From a virus (lineage: Duplodnaviria > Caudoviricetes), in IMG/VR virus record IMGVR_UViG_2928716645_000002, positions 43,985 to 107,984 of that record: a stretch of 64,000 nt of DNA; one strand, written 5' to 3'. The position numbers and the translations under genes were made by a program. Numbering within the stretch: the stretch's first letter is position 1; the number at the start of each line of letters is the position of its first letter. The notes under the pieces were generated by a model. That model saw only the letters and a list, made by a program, of their open reading frames with translations. It was not told the origin of the DNA and made no database searches. Below, piece after piece: positions 12,901-23,568 of this stretch.

Positions 12901-13519
12901 TTGGCCTCGAGCCGGTAGCGGCCATGGTGCATGCCGGCGCGTCGGTTGCGGGCTGGCGTCGGATTGGCTGGCGTTCAGCCTGGCCGAATAGTGTCAGCCC
13001 CTGCAGGCTATGTGCTGGCGCCGCGCCGCGCGCGGCAACCGCCCGCGCTCCAGTCTCGACTAGCTCGGTTGTGTGGTTGTGTCCTGTTGACGTGGCGGGC
13101 GCGCGCCGATCCGTCGGGCTATGCCGCACCGTGCGGCGCGCTGTCGCTTGGCAGTCCATCCCATGCGTCGGCGGCGCTGATGCAGCGCTCAACCCGGATG
13201 ACCGGCAACACGATGATGACTGCAGGTTGGCGCCGTTGTCGGCGGGCGCGGCGCGGTGCGGCGGGCTGTAGCTCGACTACCTCGCCCATGCCGCGCCCCT
13301 GACATGCGAAACCCGCCGAGGCGGTGCGGCCTGGCGGGCTTTGGATTGCAGCGACAATGCGTCACCGTGCTTGCTCTGAATCGGAAATTGAGTCGGCTGT
13401 CAAATCGCTGTTGCCCGGGTTGTCGGTGGATGATGGCGCCGACGGTGCGCCATGCCTCTCAATTCCGTGGTACTTGCCGGGCTAGATGACTGCGGCATAA
13501 CTCAATCTTGAGGCGTCCA

Positions 13520-13831
13520 ATGATCGATACAAAGGCGAGTAAGGCAACAGCCAAGCGCAAGCCAGCGAGCCGGGCATTTGCATCCGCTGACACGTCACTG
13601 AGAATCAGCGCGGCCGAATTCCGGACCTGGCAGGAAGGCGCCGGGCTGTCGAATGCCGCAGCTGCCCGGCTGCTCTACGTGGCGGAAAACACGTTGGCAC
13701 AATACCGCGCCAACGGCGCCGGTCCTGATATCGCCCGACAAATCTGGGCGATCATTGCAGGGATAAGGCCGGACACTGGGCGCCAACGCGCCGAGCTACT
13801 GGGCCGGATCAATGCGGCCCTAGACGGCTAA
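13520..13831 (+). CDS. Small XRE-type HTH regulator (Aca-like) at the left edge of the island
   Basis: ISAAEFRTWQEGAGLSNAAAARLLYVAENTLAQY. Confidence 0.7.
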   Translation: MIDTKASKATAKRKPASRAFASADTSLRISAAEFRTWQEGAGLSNAAAARLLYVAENTLAQYRANGAGPDIARQIWAIIAGIRPDTGRQRAELLGRINAALDG

Positions 13832-13897
13832 CGCCTCAATATTGCGATACCGACCCGGGCCAGCACAAACTTTTTTCGCAATTTTGCGTTTTGCCAG

Positions 13898-13931
13898 TTG
13901 ACGGCCGCGCGAATATCTGCGCATGTGCGCA
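13898..13931 (+). promoter_or_regulatory. Putative sigma70 promoter with a palindrome over the -10 region
   Basis: TTGACG at 13898, upstream T-tracts, and TGCGCA-TG-TGCGCA at 13918-13931. The -10 element is weak. Confidence 0.5.
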
Positions 13932-13973
13932 TCACCACGGCGCGATTGTGCGCAACTTCAAAGGCCCGGCGAA

Positions 13974-14138
13974 ATGATCCCCTTCATTTCCTTTTGCATC
14001 GCTAACCCGGCTTTCACTCTGGCCATGCTCGCAGCGATCTATACCGCTTGCTGGGCCGCCCTTGCCCCCTTCCTTTACGCGCCCGCCAAGTCTCGGCGCC
14101 TTTCGATCCGGCGCCGTGCGCGCCGCGACCGCCGCTAG
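13974..14138 (+). CDS. Small hydrophobic protein with a basic tail
   Basis: ATG follows motif A and an SD; one TM-like segment and an RRRARRDRR tail. Confidence 0.55.
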   Translation: MIPFISFCIANPAFTLAMLAAIYTACWAALAPFLYAPAKSRRLSIRRRARRDRR

Positions 14139-14149
14139 GAGCTAGGCAC

Positions 14150-14368
14150 ATGCGAACGAAGCAAACATTGAAAACCGGAACGCGCATTGAATTGCATGGC
14201 ACGCCAGCAATCGGCGCCTTTCCCGCGGTCGCTCCGGAGAGCGCGACAATCGCGCAATGGACTGCGGCAAGCGGTCCGCTCATGCCGGGTTGGCATATCG
14301 TCAAGTTTTCCGATGGCGGAAGGCTTTGCATCCACGAAAACCGATTCCGGGTTATCGACAACCGCTAA
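14150..14368 (+). CDS. Hypothetical protein (72 aa)
   Basis: AGGAG SD; MRTKQTLKTG... Confidence 0.65.
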   Translation: MRTKQTLKTGTRIELHGTPAIGAFPAVAPESATIAQWTAASGPLMPGWHIVKFSDGGRLCIHENRFRVIDNR

Positions 14369-14412
14369 CCCGTTCCACCGCGCAACTGTGCGCAACTGAA
14401 AAGGCCAAGCCC

Positions 14413-14493
14413 ATGGAAGATTTTCTAGACTTCACCCTGTTTTGCATCGCGGCGGTTGCCGGGACGTTCATCATCTTCGCTTGCTGTCTCTGA
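14413..14493 (+). CDS. 26-aa hydrophobic micropeptide
   Basis: Motif A and AAAAGG precede MEDFLDFTLFCIAAVAGTFIIFACCL. Confidence 0.5.
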   Translation: MEDFLDFTLFCIAAVAGTFIIFACCL

Positions 14494-14583
14494 CGATTTG
14501 CAGCCTATGCCGTGCGCGTCACGGCATAACCGGCAAACCGCCGACCCGCGCAATAGTGCGCAACTCAAAAGGAAGTAACTGAA

Positions 14584-15462
14584 ATGACTGTCTACACCGC
14601 AACCGCCCGTTTCGATGGTACCGCCCGCGCGCTCACCGAGAACGAATTGCGCAAGTTGGCGCCGTCGGTCTTCGCGGTCGACGCGCACCATTCGCGTTCG
14701 GAGCGTTTCCAGCCTATCCCGACTTTCGACGTGCTGCGCGCGCTGATGGCGGAGGGCTTCCAGCCCGTCGGCGCGAAACAGAGCGTTGCCCGGCTCGATG
14801 ATCGCCGCGATTTCACAAAGCATCTGATCCGGCTCCGCCGTCTCGACAACGCCACGGCGTACACCGTCGGTGATACCGTCTGCGAAATCCTCCTCAAGAA
14901 TGCGAACGACGGAACGTCCGCCTATGACTTGATCGCAGGCCTTTTCCGTGTCCGTTGCCTCAATAGCCTTGTGGCACAGGTCGGCACGGTCGAGTCCGTC
15001 AAGGTCCGCCATACCGGCTCCGCGCAGGATGTTTCGCACAAGGTGATTGAAGGCACCTATCGCGTGCTGGGCGAGGCTCAGAAGGCGCTGGCGGCGCCGC
15101 AGGACTGGGCGCGCCTGGCCCTCAACACCGACGAAAAGCAGGTGCTGGCGGAAGCCGCGCACGTTCTGCGGTTCGGTGACGCGGAAGGCGAAACCAGCAC
15201 GCCGATTCAGCCCGCGCAGTTGCTGCAGCCGCGTCGCCGCGACGACGTCGCCGCCGATCTGTGGACCACGTTCAATGTGGTTCAGGAAAACGTCATTCGT
15301 GGCGGGCTGACGGCGCGCGGCCGCGACGCCAATGGCCGGCGGCGCCGCGTCACCACCCGCGCCGTTAACGGGATCGATCAAGACGTGAAACTGAACCGCG
15401 CCCTGTTCACCCTCGCCGCCAAGATGGCGGAGCTCAAGGGCGCCGCCCCGCTCGCCGCCTAA
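14584..15462 (+). CDS. DUF932/DUF945-family protein
   Basis: APSVFA..HHSRSERF, KHLIRLR, NANDGTSAY and DLWTTFNVVQEN motifs. Confidence 0.92.
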   Translation: MTVYTATARFDGTARALTENELRKLAPSVFAVDAHHSRSERFQPIPTFDVLRALMAEGFQPVGAKQSVARLDDRRDFTKHLIRLRRLDNATAYTVGDTVCEILLKNANDGTSAYDLIAGLFRVRCLNSLVAQVGTVESVKVRHTGSAQDVSHKVIEGTYRVLGEAQKALAAPQDWARLALNTDEKQVLAEAAHVLRFGDAEGETSTPIQPAQLLQPRRRDDVAADLWTTFNVVQENVIRGGLTARGRDANGRRRRVTTRAVNGIDQDVKLNRALFTLAAKMAELKGAAPLAA

Positions 15463-15555
15463 GCGATTGCAGCCCATGCCCGGGCTTGTCCCGGGCATGA
15501 TCGGCAACCGCCGGCAACCGCGCAATTGTGCGCAACTCGAAAAGGGAAAACTGCC

Positions 15556-15660
15556 ATGAAGTATCGCCGCCACGAAACCGACCGCAAGCCCTGTGACAAG
15601 CGGACTCGCCGCGACGCGGTCCGCAACGGGAAGCGTGCTTACCTGAATTCCTGCCTGTGA
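15556..15660 (+). CDS. 34-aa basic micropeptide (absent from the ORF track)
   Basis: Motif A and AAAAGGG precede MKYRRHETDRKPCDKRTRRDAVRNGKRAYLNSCL. Confidence 0.5.
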   Translation: MKYRRHETDRKPCDKRTRRDAVRNGKRAYLNSCL

Positions 15661-15765
15661 GTACCGCTTCACTTTTGCGGCTTGTCCGCCTCTCATTCTT
15701 CGTCCGCGACGCTAGCGTGGTTATCAGCGTCGCAAGCATTCTCCTCATTCCCTAGGGAAACACCG

Positions 15766-16218
15766 ATGGAACTGAATAACCCTCATCTGCCGCGCAAAGG
15801 TGCCCGCGTCATGAACGGCACCGATGATCGCGATTTGGGAGTCGTCATTGACGTCCGCGACAATCCCAACGGACCGGTACAGGTGAAATGGGACGGCGGA
15901 GAAACGGGTTGGCACGGCGCCGATGGTATCTATTTGGCGCGGCCGAACTCGTTTCTTTTCAACTGTTGCGCGGGCGACATCGCGCCCGATTGGTCGCAGT
16001 TCAAATCCCTGGAAATCGGCGGGTGCGTCACCGAGACGGAAGAGAATGGCGACACGTTCACCATCGGCGGGAAGCCCGATAGTGAAGCCGAATTCTGGAC
16101 GGTTTACGCCCGCCACCATTCTGGCGAGGCGGAAGCGATCACGGATTGCAAAACCCGCGATGCGGCGGAATGCGCCGCCTCGCAACTGCGCGACCTTTCC
16201 CACCTTCCCATGACTTGA
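15766..16218 (+). CDS. Hypothetical protein
   Basis: AGGG SD; MELNNPHL... Confidence 0.7.
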   Translation: MELNNPHLPRKGARVMNGTDDRDLGVVIDVRDNPNGPVQVKWDGGETGWHGADGIYLARPNSFLFNCCAGDIAPDWSQFKSLEIGGCVTETEENGDTFTIGGKPDSEAEFWTVYARHHSGEAEAITDCKTRDAAECAASQLRDLSHLPMT

Positions 16219-16309
16219 CGTTGCGACACTGCGCAGTGCCTGGCGCTGCGCAGCACGGAACGCCAAAGCGGACCAACGCGCGATTGTGCGCAACGAAAAG
16301 GACTCGGAC

Positions 16310-16513
16310 ATGCGAGGGATTTGGACTCTCTACGTTGACCAATACGGCAACCATTGGGGTGCCAGCACGGTGGCAGAGCTGCGCGCCAAGATCGGCCGCG
16401 GCAGGGTCGCCAAGATGTATCGCGACAAGCCGCACGGCGGCGCCGTCCATTGCGGCTACATCGTTGGGCCGTATTGGTGCACGGCCTATCGGCCGGTTGA
16501 ACTGGCCGCCTAG
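16310..16513 (+). CDS. Hypothetical protein (67 aa)
   Basis: Preceded by motif A and an SD; ends in LAA. Confidence 0.75.
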   Translation: MRGIWTLYVDQYGNHWGASTVAELRAKIGRGRVAKMYRDKPHGGAVHCGYIVGPYWCTAYRPVELAA

Positions 16514-16575
16514 CGGCGCCGTTTCGAGACTTCACCCCGCGCGATTGTGCGCAACTGAAAGAGGAGCAATTCAAC

Positions 16576-17139
16576 ATGGCTTGGCAGTTCTATGACTTTT
16601 TCGACCATCCGACCATCGAAGGGCCGTTGCCCGAAAAGCGCTGGATCAAGCACGCCAGCGACAAGCGACACAAGGTCCGCCACAGCTCGAAAGTCACCCG
16701 CTCCACCGGCGGCGTATCCGCCAATGACCTGAACGAACGGCACACGCTCGAATATGCCCGCTGGCTGGCCCAGCGCGACGGGATCACTATCCCGCCCGGC
16801 TCCGAATATATCGTTCAGCGGGCTGACGTGAACGTCCCGGGCAGCAAGCCTCAATCCCGAATCCGCGCGGTCGAATTCGGCAAGCGGCGGACCACGCAAA
16901 GCGGCTACGGTCGCAGCGCCTGCACTAGGCACCATTGGGACGTCGCCGCCCGGATCGAAATTCCGAACTGGGATTGGCAACCCGCCGAACCGGTTGAGGA
17001 GATCATCCCGGAAGCGGTCCCGGTCCCGGTTGCGCCTTCCTTCAAGATCCCGGCGCGGATCCTGCGCACGTCTTGCCTTGTGCCCGTTCTGGCGCGTGTC
17101 CCGGTTGCGCCTTCCTGCGCAATCCGGCTTGCGGCTTGA
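16576..17139 (+). CDS. Hypothetical protein
   Basis: Preceded by motif A and GAGGAG; ends in LAA. Confidence 0.75.
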   Translation: MAWQFYDFFDHPTIEGPLPEKRWIKHASDKRHKVRHSSKVTRSTGGVSANDLNERHTLEYARWLAQRDGITIPPGSEYIVQRADVNVPGSKPQSRIRAVEFGKRRTTQSGYGRSACTRHHWDVAARIEIPNWDWQPAEPVEEIIPEAVPVPVAPSFKIPARILRTSCLVPVLARVPVAPSCAIRLAA

Positions 17140-17510
17140 TGGTGGCGCCGATGAAACGCCAGCAAGCTCCGACGTTCAGTCAGTTGTGCGACGCGCTGCA
17201 GTCGCGCCCCGCTCCGTGCTCGCAAGCCGAGTGGCGCGAGGCCTCAACCGCCATGCGCCTGGCCCGCCGCCATCCCGGCCGCGTCGGCAGGACCATCTAT
17301 ATCGAGTGCGGGACGTTCGCGCGGCGCGTTTACCTTGAAGCGACCTGGGGCGGGATGAATTGCTACAACGGCCCGCACCCGTTCGGTTATGTCAACATGA
17401 TCGCGCATCACCGATTCATGTTCCAGCAGGGACTGCGGGAAGGCCGCGTTGCGGAGGCAAGACAATTTGCGGAGGCCTCGCGCCTCCGCGGTCCGGTGCC
17501 GCTGCCATGA
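17139..17510 (+). CDS. Hypothetical protein
   Basis: TGATG coupling to the upstream gene. Confidence 0.6.
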   Translation: MVAPMKRQQAPTFSQLCDALQSRPAPCSQAEWREASTAMRLARRHPGRVGRTIYIECGTFARRVYLEATWGGMNCYNGPHPFGYVNMIAHHRFMFQQGLREGRVAEARQFAEASRLRGPVPLP

Positions 17511-17614
17511 CGCGGAAGCCTCAACCCCGCAAACAGCGCTGCCCGTACTGCAGGCAGCTGCGGCCCTTCTACATGATCGCAGCGCACATCACCCAATGCG
17601 AGGCCCTACGGTAG
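17507..17614 (+). CDS. 35-aa C2HC zinc-finger micropeptide
   Basis: ATGA coupling; CPYC-x11-H-x3-C. Confidence 0.5.
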   Translation: MTRKPQPRKQRCPYCRQLRPFYMIAAHITQCEALR

Positions 17615-17713
17615 GGTCTCGGCTACGGCCGATTTCCGCAGTGGATGACGTTCACCCCCGGCGGCGGCTGATTCCTAATTCGCGCGATAGTGCGCAAAGC
17701 GAAAGGATGACAC

Positions 17714-17911
17714 ATGCGAACAATCAAACCCGCGACGCCCGATAACGCAATTTGCCTCGGGAACGCGATAGAGGCGATGAAAAAGGCACGCCACTGGATG
17801 CGCGCGGCCGAATGCCCGAAGGCGCTCGAAGCGCTGCAGGAAGCGCTAAAAAGCGCGGAAGGTGCAAAGCGCCACATGCAACACCGGCTGAACCGCACCG
17901 CGGCCCGCTGA
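17714..17911 (+). CDS. Hypothetical helical protein (65 aa)
   Basis: Preceded by motif A and AAAGGA. Confidence 0.7.
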   Translation: MRTIKPATPDNAICLGNAIEAMKKARHWMRAAECPKALEALQEALKSAEGAKRHMQHRLNRTAAR

Positions 17912-17957
17912 ATTCTTCCCCCTCGGCTACGGCTAATTTTGAAAGGAGATCACCTCA

Positions 17958-18860
17958 ATGAGCACAATCACGATTTGGACTTGCACCACCGAAGGCGACA
18001 ACTGCGGGACCGAAACGACGGTCCATGCCACGGAAGCCGCGGCGGTGGATTATGTGCGCGGGAGCCTGCGCGATATCCTCAAGCGGAACCCCGAGCGCCT
18101 GGCCGCGATCGAGGCCGCGACCGCAGAGAATATCGCGGAGCTCTGGGAAGACTCCGTTGACGGCCCCTGCATCATCGAAGAGCAGGCCGTTGCGTTGCCG
18201 CCGTTCGCGGTTGCAATCTATGAAACTCGGCACGGCGACGAAACGCGACTCTACCCCAACAGCGACGCGGCGCGCGCCTGGCGCAGCGAGATCGCCGCCG
18301 AGAACTGGGCGGCACGAATGGACGAGGACAAACCAGCCGATCCGGACGAGGTAGCCGAAGCCTATTTTGAGCGCGTCGGAGAGATGCGCGGCGATTTCTT
18401 CCGGCTCGAGGAATTGGAGATTGTCGGCGGCACAGTCCCGGTTGCGCCTGCGCAGGATTGGCGCCAGATCGCGCGCGACCTGGCCGCCGCGCTCGACTCC
18501 TGCACCCATCAGATTGGCCAGATGCGCGGCATGTTCAGCGACGAGGACGGCACAATTTCGGGAGCAGTTTCCGACGCCGAAGACGCAGCCGCAGCCTACC
18601 GCCGGGCGGCCGCCGGCCTCCCGCCTGCGCCCGCGCCACAATTCATCGGACAGGATGACCGCGCTTGCGCGGAAGGCTGGGGGCTGTTCGAGAACAGCGA
18701 CACCGGCAAACTGGAAATTCAGGCCGACGCCGAGTCCTCAATCTTTGTTTGCGACGGCGTGAGCCACGACGACGAAGCCGAGGTCTTCGTAAAGACTCAG
18801 GCAGCCGCGGGCAGCGAGTACCACGCCTTGGCGCTGCTGCGCGTCGGTACCGCGCAATAG
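17958..18860 (+). CDS. Acidic hypothetical protein (300 aa)
   Basis: AAAGGAG SD; visibly D/E-rich. Confidence 0.8.
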   Translation: MSTITIWTCTTEGDNCGTETTVHATEAAAVDYVRGSLRDILKRNPERLAAIEAATAENIAELWEDSVDGPCIIEEQAVALPPFAVAIYETRHGDETRLYPNSDAARAWRSEIAAENWAARMDEDKPADPDEVAEAYFERVGEMRGDFFRLEELEIVGGTVPVAPAQDWRQIARDLAAALDSCTHQIGQMRGMFSDEDGTISGAVSDAEDAAAAYRRAAAGLPPAPAPQFIGQDDRACAEGWGLFENSDTGKLEIQADAESSIFVCDGVSHDDEAEVFVKTQAAAGSEYHALALLRVGTAQ

Positions 18861-18916
18861 TCCCGGCTACGATCGATTTTGCACCCCCGAGCTACGGCCG
18901 ATTTTGCAAACACCGC

Positions 18917-18946
18917 TTGACAGATTCGGCCGACGCAAATTAGAGA
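18917..18946 (+). promoter_or_regulatory. Putative sigma70 promoter
   Basis: TTGACA-18 bp-TAGAGA, between a motif B pair and motif A. Confidence 0.6.
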
Positions 18947-18987
18947 ACCAGCCCTGCGCGATTGTGCGCAAATTGAAAGGACGAGAA

Positions 18988-21135
18988 ATGCAGCATTCCG
19001 CCACCTATTCGCCCGACGATAACAAGCTGCGCCTTTATCCGGCGCACCGCCTCGACGCCGAGGATTACGCGCGCGTGAAGGCCGCCGGCTTCAAGTGGGC
19101 GCCGCGTCAAGAACTGTTCGTCAAACCGACCTGGAGCCCCGGCGCCGAAGACTTGCTGATTGAGATGTGCGGCGAAATCGGCGACGAAGACACCACGCTG
19201 ACCGACCGCGCCGAGCAGCGCGCGGACCGCTTCGAGGAGTACAGCGACAAGCGGCTTTCGGAAGCCAACCGCGCGCGCGAGGCCGTGGACCAGATCGCGG
19301 AGCGGTTTGCGATGGGGCAGCCGATCTTGGTCGGCCATCACTCGGAGAAGAGCGCGCGGCGCGACAAGGAGAAGATGGACGCCGGCATGCGCAAGGCGCT
19401 GAAGCTCTGGGACACCTCGAATTATTGGACTGCGCGCGCGGCCGGCGCAATCGCTCACGCCAAATACAAGGAACTGCCGGCGGTGCGTCATCGCCGCATC
19501 AAGACAATTGAGTCCGACAAGCGGAAGTTGGAACGGCTGCAGGCGGACACTGAACGCCAGCTGAAGGCCTGGCAGATCGTCGCCGACATCACCGACCCGG
19601 AGAAGCAGCGCGCGGCCGGCTTGGCCGTGGCCAACGCGGGCGGCTTTTGGTCGATGTCGTTTCCGCTGGCGGATTATCCGCGCGACCCGCCGGCCTCGCA
19701 GTATGAGGGACCGATGGGGCTTTGGTCGGCGATTGACGGGAACGTCATCACCGCCGCGCAGGCTGCCGCTATCGCGATTCCGAGCCTGGAGCGGTCCGGG
19801 CCTTCGCGAGCCCGTTGGTTGGCCCACTATGACAACCGGCTGGCCTACGAACGCGCGATGCTGGCCGAACAGATCGGCGCCGAGGCCACCGCTAACCCGC
19901 TGGCCGACCGCTTCGCCTTCGCCGTCGGCGGTCAGATTCAGACGCGCCGCGGCGACGAGTGGCTTACGATTGTGAAGGTCAGCAGGGGCGCTAACGGTTC
20001 GGTTTCCAGCATTCAAACCGCGGCCCCCTCAGGATCGCGCGGGCGCGGTGTTTACTGGAAGGTCGAAAGCGTCCGCGACTATCGCGCGCCGACCGCCGAG
20101 AACGTCGCCACGGCGAAGGCAGCCACCAAGCTGCCGCCGCTCTGCAACTATCCCGGCGAGGGATTCCGCGAAATGACGGAGGCCGAATGGAAGGGCCGCC
20201 GGCAGTGGTCGGATTTCTCCTATGTGCGCGGCATTGAGGCAACCGAGACCGCACAGAAGCACCGCGCGCGATTCATGCCGGTACCGGGCAAGATGTGGGA
20301 GCGCCAGCAAGTTTTCATTACGGATGCAAAGCGCGTCGATCCGCCCAGGATCGCGCCGGCAGCCGAGCCGCAGGCGCCCGCGGAATTTGTCGCCGAATAT
20401 GTAGCGCCGCCGGTCGCCGATCTTGACGCCACGCTGGAAGTGGTCGGCGAGATCATGGCGGAGCCGTCGCCGGTTGAGACGGTGCCGGAGGTCGTCCCGG
20501 TTGCGCCCGCGGAGGCGTCGCGCCATCTCCCGGATACGGCCGATTTGCCGGCGCCCTCTTCGGCCGACACGTTCGAGGCCATGCGGGCAATGCTGAAAGG
20601 CGGCGGCGTGCAAGTCGTCGTCGCGCCGCAGTTGTTCCCGACATCGCACGCACTGGCGGGCGACGTCGCAGAGCTCGCCGACATCCGAGACGGGCACCGT
20701 GTGCTTGAGCCTAGCGCCGGCACTGGCGTGTTGATCGAGGCGGCGCGCCGCAATGTCGACGGCTACATCGATATTGTCGCGGTCGAGATCAACCCGACGC
20801 TTGCGCGCGGCCTGGCCGGTCGGTTTCCCGGCGTCAAGGTCATCAACGCCGACTTCCTCGAGGTGGACAGCTCCGAGATGGTCGGGAAGTTCGACCGCAT
20901 CCTGATGAATTCGCCATTCGAACGCGGCGCAGACATCAGACATATCGAGCACGCGCGCACGTTTCTGCGGCCTGGTGGCCGGCTCGTCGCGATCTGCGCG
21001 GACGGTCCACGCCAGCGCGCGAAGTTCGAACCGATCGCGACGGAGTATCGCGCCCTGCCCGCCGGGTCCTTCAAGGCCGCCGGCACAATGGTCAACACGG
21101 CGCTCGTCGTCATCGACGGGCCGCCGCCGGGGTAA
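18988..21135 (+). CDS. DUF3560-domain protein fused to an amino-DNA methyltransferase
   Basis: ATYSPDDNKLRLY and GQPILVGHHSE; C-terminal LFPT, VLEPSAGTG and ILMNSPF. Confidence 0.9.
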   Translation: MQHSATYSPDDNKLRLYPAHRLDAEDYARVKAAGFKWAPRQELFVKPTWSPGAEDLLIEMCGEIGDEDTTLTDRAEQRADRFEEYSDKRLSEANRAREAVDQIAERFAMGQPILVGHHSEKSARRDKEKMDAGMRKALKLWDTSNYWTARAAGAIAHAKYKELPAVRHRRIKTIESDKRKLERLQADTERQLKAWQIVADITDPEKQRAAGLAVANAGGFWSMSFPLADYPRDPPASQYEGPMGLWSAIDGNVITAAQAAAIAIPSLERSGPSRARWLAHYDNRLAYERAMLAEQIGAEATANPLADRFAFAVGGQIQTRRGDEWLTIVKVSRGANGSVSSIQTAAPSGSRGRGVYWKVESVRDYRAPTAENVATAKAATKLPPLCNYPGEGFREMTEAEWKGRRQWSDFSYVRGIEATETAQKHRARFMPVPGKMWERQQVFITDAKRVDPPRIAPAAEPQAPAEFVAEYVAPPVADLDATLEVVGEIMAEPSPVETVPEVVPVAPAEASRHLPDTADLPAPSSADTFEAMRAMLKGGGVQVVVAPQLFPTSHALAGDVAELADIRDGHRVLEPSAGTGVLIEAARRNVDGYIDIVAVEINPTLARGLAGRFPGVKVINADFLEVDSSEMVGKFDRILMNSPFERGADIRHIEHARTFLRPGGRLVAICADGPRQRAKFEPIATEYRALPAGSFKAAGTMVNTALVVIDGPPPG

Positions 21136-21212
21136 TTCCGGCCGCCCTCCCGCTTACGACCGATTTCCCATCCTCCCCTCGGCTACGGCCGATTCCGAAA
21201 GGAGCTTGATTC

Positions 21213-21770
21213 ATGTCCGACCGCTTTACCTCTGAGGAAATGCACCTGCTGAAGCAACTTCAGAACGGCCCGCAGCGCGACCGCGACCGCATACCTGAAC
21301 GTGTTCTCGTCAATAGCGGGATGGCCCGGCGTGCCGATTCTGGGATGATCGAGATCACAAACGCCGGCCGCGCATGGATGGATTTGCCTGACGTCGGCGA
21401 GGAACTCGGCCGCGCTCGCGCCAGCATCCATAGTTTCGACCGCTTCAAGGCAGGCGATCCGGCGCGCAGCATTTTCCGAAAGATGGGCCTTCTGGAGTAT
21501 CTCGATGCGGCGCAGAGCTGGGGGCAGTTGCGGGCGCTCATCGTGCGATTCAACGACCCCGACAAGGGTCACTTCGTGAAGCGAGCCAAGCAATGCGACG
21601 GCGTCTGCAGTTCGGGCGAGCGCGTCTTACTGCATGCCATCCTCTACGTGACCGACTTCGCCTGGCTGGCCGACAAGCTGGGTGGCAAAGAGGTATGGCA
21701 GAACATGAACCGTGCCGGCGGTGAACACCGTGCGGCGGTTGCGGCCTGCATCGGCGCTGAGGTGTACTGA
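21213..21770 (+). CDS. Hypothetical protein
   Basis: AAAGGAG SD; 185 aa. Confidence 0.75.
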   Translation: MSDRFTSEEMHLLKQLQNGPQRDRDRIPERVLVNSGMARRADSGMIEITNAGRAWMDLPDVGEELGRARASIHSFDRFKAGDPARSIFRKMGLLEYLDAAQSWGQLRALIVRFNDPDKGHFVKRAKQCDGVCSSGERVLLHAILYVTDFAWLADKLGGKEVWQNMNRAGGEHRAAVAACIGAEVY

Positions 21771-21771
21771 C

Positions 21772-22050
21772 ATGGCAAGCGCGCAACTGCTAATCGCCGC
21801 CGGCTTCAGGGTCACCACGCGCGCCGAGTTCGACGCCGCCACCGACGTGCCCGCCGGGATGCGCCTGGTGGCCACGCGCATCTTCAAGCGATGGGGCGGC
21901 GACTTCGTGGTGTACGACCCGGCCGGCGGCGATGACGGCTGGCTACTGATCGATTATGATCGCGACCAGATCATCGGCGAGACGATCGAGCACCTCGGGC
22001 GGCTCGCACCGCCCGAGCCGCCGGCGCCGGCACAAGGTTCGCTGTTCTGA
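21772..22050 (+). CDS. Hypothetical protein ending in QGSLF
   Basis: ATG immediately follows the upstream stop. Confidence 0.65.
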   Translation: MASAQLLIAAGFRVTTRAEFDAATDVPAGMRLVATRIFKRWGGDFVVYDPAGGDDGWLLIDYDRDQIIGETIEHLGRLAPPEPPAPAQGSLF

Positions 22051-22094
22051 TACCGGATACGATCGATTTTGAAACTGGAAAGGAGAGAACGCAG

Positions 22095-22544
22095 ATGCAG
22101 CATAGCAACGTGATTAACCGCCTTCTCGGTACCGGCACACTCACATGGGCAAGCGCCGAACGCCGGAGCGACCGTTACGGAACGGTTTATCTGATACCGC
22201 ATCGCCATAACTCCCTCACGCGCAATCCCTCTGTGTCGCTCATCGACGTTGAGGCGGCTCGCGCGTTTGAGGGACGCCGGGGAGACCTGGTCGCGGTTGT
22301 GAAAGAGACACGGGAAAGCACTCACATCGGAGACCTGTTCCGCGGCGTCTCTCCCCGTACGCCGGAGGTCGGCCAAATCATCGCGCTCGGTTCGGGAACG
22401 CTGATTATTGAGCCCGCACCAGAGGGCGGCGTGATGGTCGGCCTTCGACCCGACGACGGTCGCGATAGCGATTGGTTGCGCATCCGGGCGCTCTACGACG
22501 CGCATGAACAGACCGTCGACCTGCACTTCCATCCGACGAAGTGA
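22095..22544 (+). CDS. Hypothetical protein
   Basis: AAAGGAG SD; 149 aa. Confidence 0.75.
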   Translation: MQHSNVINRLLGTGTLTWASAERRSDRYGTVYLIPHRHNSLTRNPSVSLIDVEAARAFEGRRGDLVAVVKETRESTHIGDLFRGVSPRTPEVGQIIALGSGTLIIEPAPEGGVMVGLRPDDGRDSDWLRIRALYDAHEQTVDLHFHPTK

Positions 22545-22554
22545 GGCCGCGGTC

Positions 22555-22929
22555 ATGTCGAGAACCGTCCGCCGCGTGCCCGCCGACTGGCAGCATCCTC
22601 GCAACTCCTCCGGCCGCTACATCCCGCTGGCTTATGCCCTCCCGGATGCGCCCACGCCCTACCCGGCCGCCAGCTATATGCCGGCATGGCCGACCGCGGA
22701 GCGGACGCATTGGCAGTTGTACGAGACCACCAGCGCCGGCACGCCGGTTTCGCCGCCCTGCCCATCGCCCGAGGCTTTGGCCAAATGGCTGGCCGACCAC
22801 CACACGGAGGCCGCGCCGGGATTCACGGGAACTGAGGCGCAATGGCTCGGCGCAATCAAGCGCGGCGGCGTCATCCCGCCGGTGATGTCCGTCGGCAAGC
22901 GCCTGGTCAATCCGCTCGACTACACCTGA
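22555..22929 (+). CDS. Hypothetical phage protein
   Basis: RRVPADWQHP and WQLYETTSAGTPVSP. Confidence 0.75.
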   Translation: MSRTVRRVPADWQHPRNSSGRYIPLAYALPDAPTPYPAASYMPAWPTAERTHWQLYETTSAGTPVSPPCPSPEALAKWLADHHTEAAPGFTGTEAQWLGAIKRGGVIPPVMSVGKRLVNPLDYT

Positions 22930-23022
22930 TCGGCCGGGACTCCCGGCTACGATCGATTTTGTGCTACCCCCTCGGCTACGGCCGATTCCGGGCGACTGTG
23001 CCCAACCGGAAAGGATCCTGAG

Positions 23023-23346
23023 ATGTCACCACCACGATTTGTCCACCGCAAGATCTCGAGCGACGATTTCAAGGCCGAACTGGCCAAGCAGGGCATGTCG
23101 GTGTCGGCGTTCGCGCGGGTCTGGTGCCAGAACCTCTCGACCGTCAGGAAGTGGGCGAACGGCGGGAACGATATCCCGACCTGGGTGCCGATCGCGCTGA
23201 CCATGATGACGCTGCCGAATGCCCACGGGACCGCACGCATGGCGGCCGCGGCGATGATCCAGCAGGACCGGCTGCATCCCGAGCTCGGTGAATTTCCCTA
23301 TCAGAAACTGCGGCAGATGCCGGCGGACGACGAGATCGAGGAATAG
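23023..23346 (+). CDS. Small XRE-type HTH regulator (Aca-like) at the right edge of the island
   Basis: SSDDFKAELAKQGMSVSAFAR..STVRKWANG..IPTWV; preceded by a motif B pair and motif A. Confidence 0.8.
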   Translation: MSPPRFVHRKISSDDFKAELAKQGMSVSAFARVWCQNLSTVRKWANGGNDIPTWVPIALTMMTLPNAHGTARMAAAAMIQQDRLHPELGEFPYQKLRQMPADDEIEE

Positions 23347-23352
23347 CCCCGG

Positions 23353-23568
23353 CTACGATCGATTTTGCGCGCTGCGCCTTTTCTTCGCCGCGCTCCGCTT
23401 CTTCGCCGGTGATCGCTTGGCGGCTGGCATCGGCGTCGACTCCTTTGCCGCTGCGGCAGCCGCAGCGTCCCGAGCATCGAGCTCCCGCTTCTGCGCCTGC
23501 ATCCGCTCGAACCTGGCTTCGCGCTGAGCCCGCAGCGCGTCGGCGCGCGGTGATGGTTCGCGTCCCAT
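23353..23568 (-). CDS. Small basic hypothetical protein
   Basis: TAATG coupling; MGREPSPRADALRAQRE. Confidence 0.55.
   Translation of the reverse strand: MGREPSPRADALRAQREARFERMQAQKRELDARDAAAAAAAKESTPMPAAKRSPAKKRSAAKKRRSAQNRS

Follow-up and report, generated by a model that had tools for sequence, protein, structure and literature searches.

Motif A is a short hairpin that stands just upstream of Shine-Dalgarno (SD) sequences at nine gene starts within one accessory gene island of a provirus. We studied it in a stretch of 64,000 nt (the window, whose numbering is used for all positions) from the 108-kb IMG/VR provirus record IMGVR_UViG_2928716645_000002, following up an original prediction that had listed the nine hairpins from the letters of this DNA. 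In related phages the pairing of the stem, the sequence of the loop, the strand and the distance to the SD are all conserved. Judging from these sequence comparisons, the island is most likely a swappable set of early genes that is controlled together through an mRNA hairpin read by a phage regulator. In its specific form we give this reading about an even chance (probability roughly 0.5): motif A would be an mRNA hairpin before the SD whose fixed core is read by a phage trans-acting factor, the best candidate being the helix-turn-helix (HTH) product of the last island gene, so that the gene cassettes come under joint control.

Pairing, strand and position of motif A

All nine hairpins are present exactly as first listed (Table 1). 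The pattern GCGCRNNNGTGCGC has eight matches in the window, all on the plus strand, while shuffled versions hold 1.25 ± 1.25 and none of 100 shuffles reached eight. Each window copy consists of a 5-bp stem and a 4-nt loop and is followed by AA and then an SD; the inner pair is by turns A-T or G-T, and the copy at 22990 retains pair 2 through a double compensatory change.

The original prediction had taken these variants as a sign that base pairing appears conserved, and copies from relatives bear this out. Related proviruses from Bradyrhizobium, Mesorhizobium, Bosea and metagenome contigs supply about 120 non-identical copies with strong covariation. In 79 viral loci anchored on DUF932, a covariance model built from the nine window copies gave 54 matches and a second model 70, and about 60 further matches came from loci anchored on the island's last gene. 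Of the cells in 68 distinct matches, 99.4% pair and 35 are changed on both sides, a result equalled by none of 500 shuffles; ten extra pair types occur among them. This alignment had been fitted to the model, so we retested covariation without a pairing criterion, on 128 copies picked by their 8-nt core together with a downstream SD and start codon. In this unbiased set the three outer positions are paired in 95, 95 and 88% of copies, compared with 37 to 41% where the same core occurs elsewhere. At the fourth outer position only 13% of the 128 pair, which sets the stem length at 5 bp. These comparisons support the view that base pairing, and not sequence alone, is conserved in motif A.

The three outer pairs are free in sequence (GCGC, GGGC, GCCC, TGGC, CGGC, GGTC, GCTC and others). 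All copies have in common a fixed, asymmetric core, C-R-A-Y-N-G-T-G, which comprises the loop and the two closing pairs; within it, the loop never varies at A6 and G9, and of 68 copies 35 close with A-U and 32 with G-U. The core stays constant while the stems vary inside a single genome (GGCT, TGCC and GCCC in L104), and it is also constant between phages with almost no island genes in common. The motif is retained upstream of the DUF932 gene with differing stems: GCGC for the window, GCCC for one relative (L023) and GCC for two others (L015 and L016).

Position and strand are similarly constrained. The window copies had been described as restricted to the sense strand, and in the relatives, too, every match at E <= 0.1 lies on the gene strand. 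In 111 of 120 copies from relatives, 6 to 8 nt separate the hairpin end from the SD core, and the start codon lies 17 to 23 nt after the hairpin; SD and start codon follow at a fixed spacing in 120 of 138 hairpins. The genes headed in this way belong to at least 37 unrelated families.

Three features point to a sense-strand RNA hairpin and not a duplex DNA operator: closing pairs of the G-U type, the asymmetry of the core and the fixed SD distance. G-U pairing is available on the sense strand only, because the opposite strand would hold C-A mismatches, and a constraint on the distance to the SD would be meaningful only in mRNA. We infer from these sequence features that motif A acts as an RNA hairpin in the sense-strand mRNA. 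The element had been proposed to be an operator made of RNA or of single-stranded DNA (ssDNA) that coordinates translation, processing or antitermination. The RNA reading gains from the G-U pairs and the SD distance, and the constancy of the 6- to 8-nt spacing suggests a role at translation initiation, with antitermination and an ssDNA function as weaker options.

Motif A is confined to the island, as had been noticed: no further copy is found elsewhere in the 108-kb provirus record. Rfam searches returned no match at the gathering score over the whole window and none at E <= 1 with permissive filters over 13400-23500. We found no description of the element in Rfam or in the literature searched, and to that extent its novelty holds, but close functional analogues exist (Aca1/Aca2 motifs, SAS/ESAS repeats and PeSLs, discussed below). 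The close relatives of the window are Bradyrhizobium prophages; Bradyrhizobium sp. C9 and B. embrapense SEMIA 6208 are two strains with the island. In each of four whole Bradyrhizobium genomes (8 to 9.5 Mb), a relaxed pattern detected one 10-kb cluster of 7 to 11 copies, and the single cluster per genome rules out a host-wide REP-like repeat with hundreds of dispersed copies. The same four genomes hold 1 to 6 scattered matches besides the cluster; the five that we inspected are chance matches, none of them followed by an SD and start codon. A covariance-model search of 101 Bradyrhizobium genomes found the cluster only in the known carrier, a prevalence that is a lower bound since the search scores only 74 candidates per genome.

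The terminal HTH protein as candidate reader

The last gene of the island encodes a protein for which AlphaFold2 predicts a five-helix, XRE-type HTH fold. This gene is always headed by its own motif A copy, and in all close relatives that copy is the GGGC variant. The protein belongs to no Pfam family and is annotated as "hypothetical" in databases. Foldseek matched the model to HigA2, restriction-modification controller C-proteins, Aca1, Aca2 and Aca10, all weakly. A PDB profile search gave weak matches to HigA and AcrIF25 only; PDB sequence searches with this protein and with the HTH protein of the first island gene (13520) yielded nothing useful, and BLASTP detected no similarity between the two.

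Among the 79 DUF932-anchored loci, 7 have both the motif (counted as present at two or more copies) and the HTH family, 2 the motif only, 1 the HTH only and 69 neither (Fisher p = 1e-7, without correction for relatedness); a contig end cuts off one of the motif-only loci. Four distant HTH homologues (30 to 43% identity; Mesorhizobium, Bosea and metagenomes) are encoded in analogous opposite-strand islands that have almost no other gene in common with the window. Three of the four have two or three canonical copies upstream, with new stems, and the fourth has one variant copy. On this evidence the terminal HTH protein is the best candidate for an Aca2-like reader of motif A.

As a separate observation, a HerA/DUF87-type ATPase gene adjoins the HTH homologue, or lies one small gene from it, in the distant phages (Table 1); no HerA/DUF87-type gene is found at the corresponding place in the window. 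A 35-aa ORF with a zinc-knuckle pattern, translationally coupled to the gene before it, is 73 to 100% identical in six related phages, far above the conservation of its neighbours. We considered this CCHC mini-protein as a Com-like, RNA-binding general reader and rejected it, as it occurs in only 6 motif-bearing phages and is absent from the others.

Aca2 is an HTH protein that binds hairpins in 5' untranslated regions and blocks the ribosome-binding site (RBS), and Aca1 also binds a hairpin; both regulators bind promoter DNA as well, and Aca-type RNA motifs are also found between genes within anti-defence operons (PMC13551039). Like the Aca1/Aca2 motifs, motif A goes with a small HTH gene at the end of a counter-defence-type operon, and it is a co-varying hairpin that adjoins the RBS and also occurs between cistrons. 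The window further resembles Aca systems in having a DNA repeat just upstream of its first RNA hairpin. Unlike those systems, motif A has an unrelated sequence and an unrelated protein family, with no acr gene known here; there are 9 to 14 copies per phage, one per independently translated cistron; and the recognised part would apparently be the loop with two closing pairs, not the stem.

A second set of analogues comes from Cluster K mycobacteriophages, whose genomes carry 11 to 19 SAS repeats, in one orientation, at the starts of some non-structural genes. Their supposed function is translational; orthologous genes keep the repeat, and inverted repeats lie just upstream (PMC3203893). Motif A shares with SAS and ESAS the location at start sites, the single orientation and the retention by orthologous genes. 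It differs in that SAS is a 13-bp GGGATAGGAGCCC-type repeat that contains the SD, which is separate in motif A, and in that ESAS has 17-bp arms of conserved sequence around a 4- to 13-bp spacer, in contrast to free 5-bp arms around a fixed 4-nt loop. The host phylum is also different, and motif A falls outside this class. By sequence, geometry or protein family, motif A is likewise outside the Aca and PeSL families, and it is not a stoperator.

In the mechanism that we favour, the island would be transcribed from one or a few promoters, possibly at the TTGAC boxes before copies 1 and 8, and each independently translated cistron would begin with hairpin, SD and ATG. The stem would need only to pair, whereas C-R-A-Y-N-G-U-G would be held fixed by a sequence-specific phage trans-acting factor that reads it. 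This factor, probably the terminal HTH protein, would build up as the last product, contact the loop and closing pairs and, 6 to 8 nt from the SD, limit 30S binding or alter mRNA decay. The outcome would be joint negative feedback on all cassettes after an early burst, Aca2-like, at 9 to 14 sites per phage, and the 28-nt module common to all cassettes would double as a recombination joint for gene gain and loss. That a protein binds motif A, which protein this is and in which direction it acts are the parts of this mechanism that we infer.

The two TTGAC boxes do lie about 40 bp upstream of their hairpins, as first reported (Table 1). They had further been taken to mark likely transcript 5' ends; a sigma-70 scan calls neither as a promoter. 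The combined sigma-70 and terminator scan found no promoter and no terminator at any motif A junction, and the hairpin has no U-tract.

Several observations weigh against a trans-acting reader of this kind. The hairpin, at 5 bp, is of moderate stability only and is absent from the minimum-energy structure in three of nine local folds. The HTH protein stands outside the named Aca families, and its structural similarity to known proteins is weak (Foldseek E about 0.02 to 0.6, with best matches to HigA2 and E 0.3 to 0.6 for Aca1, Aca2 and Aca10). No known anti-defence protein was recognised in the island by general scans, which included no search aimed at anti-defence. One locus (L078) has copies and no detectable HTH homologue, another (L055) has a distant homologue and no copies, and the co-occurrence of HTH and motif is confounded by common ancestry and synteny. 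Another phage gene, or a host gene, could also encode the reader.

Other loops, cassette joints and competing explanations

DUF932 islands without this HTH family have no motif A and carry other hairpins at the same place. The island of L017 (9555-13620) has eight copies of a hairpin with the loop ATGGC and with stems of 5 to 9 bp that are all different, located 3 to 8 nt before a GAAAGGGA-type SD. Loops in other lineages read C-AATC-NN, CGCGTTCAT...ACGCG or CCGGCCCTGGCAGGGGCCGG, again with co-varying stems. A lineage-specific fixed loop combined with a free stem fits readers that are specific to each lineage; a Pfam scan of the L017 island ORFs returned no recognisable regulator.

The explanation that survives best next to a trans-acting reader, although we consider it unlikely, is that motif A is a factor-independent cis element, a 5' stabiliser or RBS insulator. 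Such an "expression socket" would keep the RBS open and shield the 5' end of the processed mRNA regardless of the gene upstream. It would agree with the SD being unpaired in local folds of the window copies, with the location of two copies at likely transcript 5' ends, with the large GC hairpins (possible 3' protectors of the upstream cistron) that precede three copies, and with the variety of gene families that motif A heads. That different hairpins fill the same place in other lineages would be expected as well. Structure alone, however, leaves unexplained why an asymmetric 8-nt core is invariant across genera while stems change within a genome, and why each lineage has a fixed loop of its own.

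Motif A also coincides with the boundaries of homology between phages. BLAST blocks between the window and its relatives start 0 to 3 nt before a copy or end 2 to 15 nt after one. One relative (L010) lacks window positions 17708-18955, which hold two genes, with the joint on motif A, and in five others (L089, L090, L094, L095 and L097) only junction modules of 80 to 100 nt are conserved between different genes. Mosaic breakpoints fall on motif A, which in these alignments marks cassette joints as well.

It could be argued from these joints that motif A is primarily a recombination linker, a repeat that exists for homologous cassette shuffling, for which the PeSLs of T4-type phages offer a precedent (PMC2839356, PMC4122927). 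PeSLs, too, are short repeated modules between small accessory genes in hyperplastic regions, and insertion, deletion and replacement joints between relatives are found at the module in both cases. They are, however, composite terminator/promoter units, whereas the junctions here (45 to 100 nt) contain no detectable promoter and the conserved part of the module is the RBS-proximal hairpin. Recombination requires identity, not pairing, and leaves the compensatory changes, the fixed SD distance and a strand bias beyond descent unaccounted for. We regard this as an improbable primary function; shuffling more plausibly follows from the repetition of a regulatory module.

A site for a protein on duplex DNA, either a stoperator-like roadblock or an HTH operator at many internal promoters that silences the island in the lysogen, is distinctly improbable in our estimation. 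A 14-bp near-palindrome has the usual size of an HTH operator, the island is bracketed by HTH genes, and a related DNA repeat, TGCGCATGTGCGCA, occurs at the first promoter-like region. Cluster A stoperators are likewise numerous, asymmetric sites in short intergenic spaces with a single orientation to transcription (PMC9283540). Those, however, are 13-bp duplex sites without a pairing constraint, while the outer arms of motif A vary within one genome and yet remain complementary, which plays no part in duplex recognition. What is conserved is the inner, asymmetric 8 nt, where the CR and TG dinucleotides are just 6 bp apart, probably too close for two HTH recognition helices; G at position 5 breaks the palindrome in half of the copies; and intergenic gaps down to 45 nt leave no room for promoters, of which none is predicted. 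The tandem hexamers TGCGCA-TG-TGCGCA before copy 1 (Table 1), retained in the nearest relatives only, may themselves be a DNA operator; a DNA repeat followed by an RNA hairpin has been reported in aca operons, and the order here is similar. On geometry, and by reasoning alone, we also rejected a sigma-54 promoter, an integration host factor site, a CtrA box, a LexA box, an N4-type hairpin promoter, a lambda nut boxB, an RNase III site and an integron attC.

DUF932 and DUF3560-methyltransferase families are typical of conjugative leading regions. The presence of both in the island, together with the strand-specific pairing, would suit an ssDNA hairpin (an ssDNA promoter, a priming signal or an attC-like site) in an island resembling a plasmid leading region, an idea that we hold to be very improbable because the DNA injected by tailed phages is duplex, Frpo-type promoters and attC sites are far larger than a 5-bp hairpin, the island proteins scanned included neither an integrase nor an HUH nuclease, and a fixed SD distance would be meaningless for such a function.

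Returning to an mRNA hairpin read by a phage protein, we advance a broader version only tentatively and think it rather doubtful: that temperate phages of Rhizobiales run one-protein, many-cistron translational regulons, in which an RNA "socket" is read by an HTH protein encoded at the island end and orthogonal loops (CRAYNGUG, ATGGC, AATC-type and others) have readers of their own. If so, a gene moved between compatible islands would bring both its recombination joint and its co-regulation signal along, and the motif A module would explain how islands stay co-regulated despite turnover in gene content. If the HTH protein reads the hairpins, its 9 to 14 sites per phage would far exceed the RNA regulon of any other Aca-like regulator, and translational control by DNA-binding folds would be a general means of running early or counter-defence islands, beyond the few anti-CRISPR cases. 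The lineage-specific loops would then supply RNA-protein pairs, possibly orthogonal ones, as ready-made tools. In practical terms, hairpin plus SD is a computable marker with which to find and delimit accessory islands, with many unknown genes, in Rhizobiales prophages.

The island and its other repeats

The island opposes the phage genes on either side, which are all on the minus strand: terS, terL and portal genes on one side and genes for an HNH endonuclease, an IrrE/HTH protein and a DnaB helicase on the other. Where island gene starts are uncoupled to the preceding gene, nine have motif A before the SD, three have a second repeat, motif B, and one has another hairpin. The only recognisable domains in the island are DUF932 and the DUF3560-methyltransferase fusion. 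The first HTH protein was assigned by a Jackhmmer family, a distant member of which, in L018, scores above the Pfam HTH_31/HTH_3 cut-off.

Table 1. Features of the accessory island and of related loci (window numbering unless a locus is named).
Feature	Positions	Strand	Description
Accessory island	13520-23346	+	9.8 kb; 19 same-strand genes
First island gene	13520-13831	+	103-aa Cro/XRE-like HTH; upstream of first motif A, no copy of its own
TGCGCA-TG-TGCGCA	13918-13931		Two tandem palindromic hexamers; 9 nt before copy 1, after TTGAC box
Motif A copy 1	13940-13953	+	GCGCG-ATTG-TGCGC; heads 54-aa ORF 13974-14138; TTGAC box 42 nt upstream
Motif A copy 2	14380-14393	+	GCGCA-ACTG-TGCGC; heads 26-aa ORF 14413-14493
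Motif A copy 3	14548-14561	+	GCGCA-ATAG-TGCGC; heads DUF932 gene 14584-15462
Motif A copy 4	15520-15533	+	GCGCA-ATTG-TGCGC; heads 34-aa ORF 15556-15660
Motif A copy 5	16278-16291	+	GCGCG-ATTG-TGCGC; heads ORF 16310-16513
Motif A copy 6	16539-16552	+	GCGCG-ATTG-TGCGC; heads ORF 16576-17139
35-aa ORF	17507-17614		C-x2-C-x11-H-x3-C zinc-knuckle pattern
Motif A copy 7	17682-17695	+	GCGCG-ATAG-TGCGC; heads ORF 17714-17911; one side of two-gene difference from L010
Motif A copy 8	18956-18969	+	GCGCG-ATTG-TGCGC; extra T-A pair 18955/18970; TTGACA 39 nt upstream; heads DUF3560 + methyltransferase gene 18988-21135; other side of difference from L010
Motif A copy 9	22990-23003	+	GGGCG-ACTG-TGCCC; pair 2 flipped; heads terminal HTH gene
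Terminal island gene	23023-23346	+	107-aa XRE-type HTH protein; AlphaFold2 model, pLDDT 84
Motif B copies	17617, 17921, 18861, 18887, 20528, 21148, 21177, ~22052, 22941, 22970, 23348		
HTH homologue + HerA/DUF87 region	L104:10559-11566; L105:8715-10004; L106:10491-11903; L107:10600-11988		Distant phages
Other DUF932 islands	L021, L025, L034, L036, L043, L045		Different SD-proximal hairpins with fixed loops and co-varying stems

Gene junctions in the island's second half, from 17617 to 23367, are marked by motif B, which has the sequence CCCGGCTACGRYCGATTYY and is partly a C-UACG-G tetraloop hairpin. At the genes starting at 17958, 21213 and 22095 it takes the position of motif A, immediately ahead of the SD. 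One copy, at 20524-20548, lies inside a 715-aa ORF between the DUF3560 part and the methyltransferase domain, and homology blocks to relatives break there (20466/20522 to 20497/20528). From its position, this copy looks like a fossil cassette joint within a fused gene.

A 14-nt repeat, GTCCCGGTTGCGCC, occurs at 17023, 17098, 18435 and 20494, within three coding regions, and encodes VPVAP each time; it may represent a common peptide linker or another recombination point. The GC-rich hairpins noted above, at 14506-14528, 15474-15498 and 16229-16253, have stems of 8 to 11 bp without a U-tract and lie 25 to 30 nt before a motif A copy, where they may protect the 3' end of the upstream cistron. The first two of them have a common flank, GATTGCAGCC..., which points to a larger junction module.

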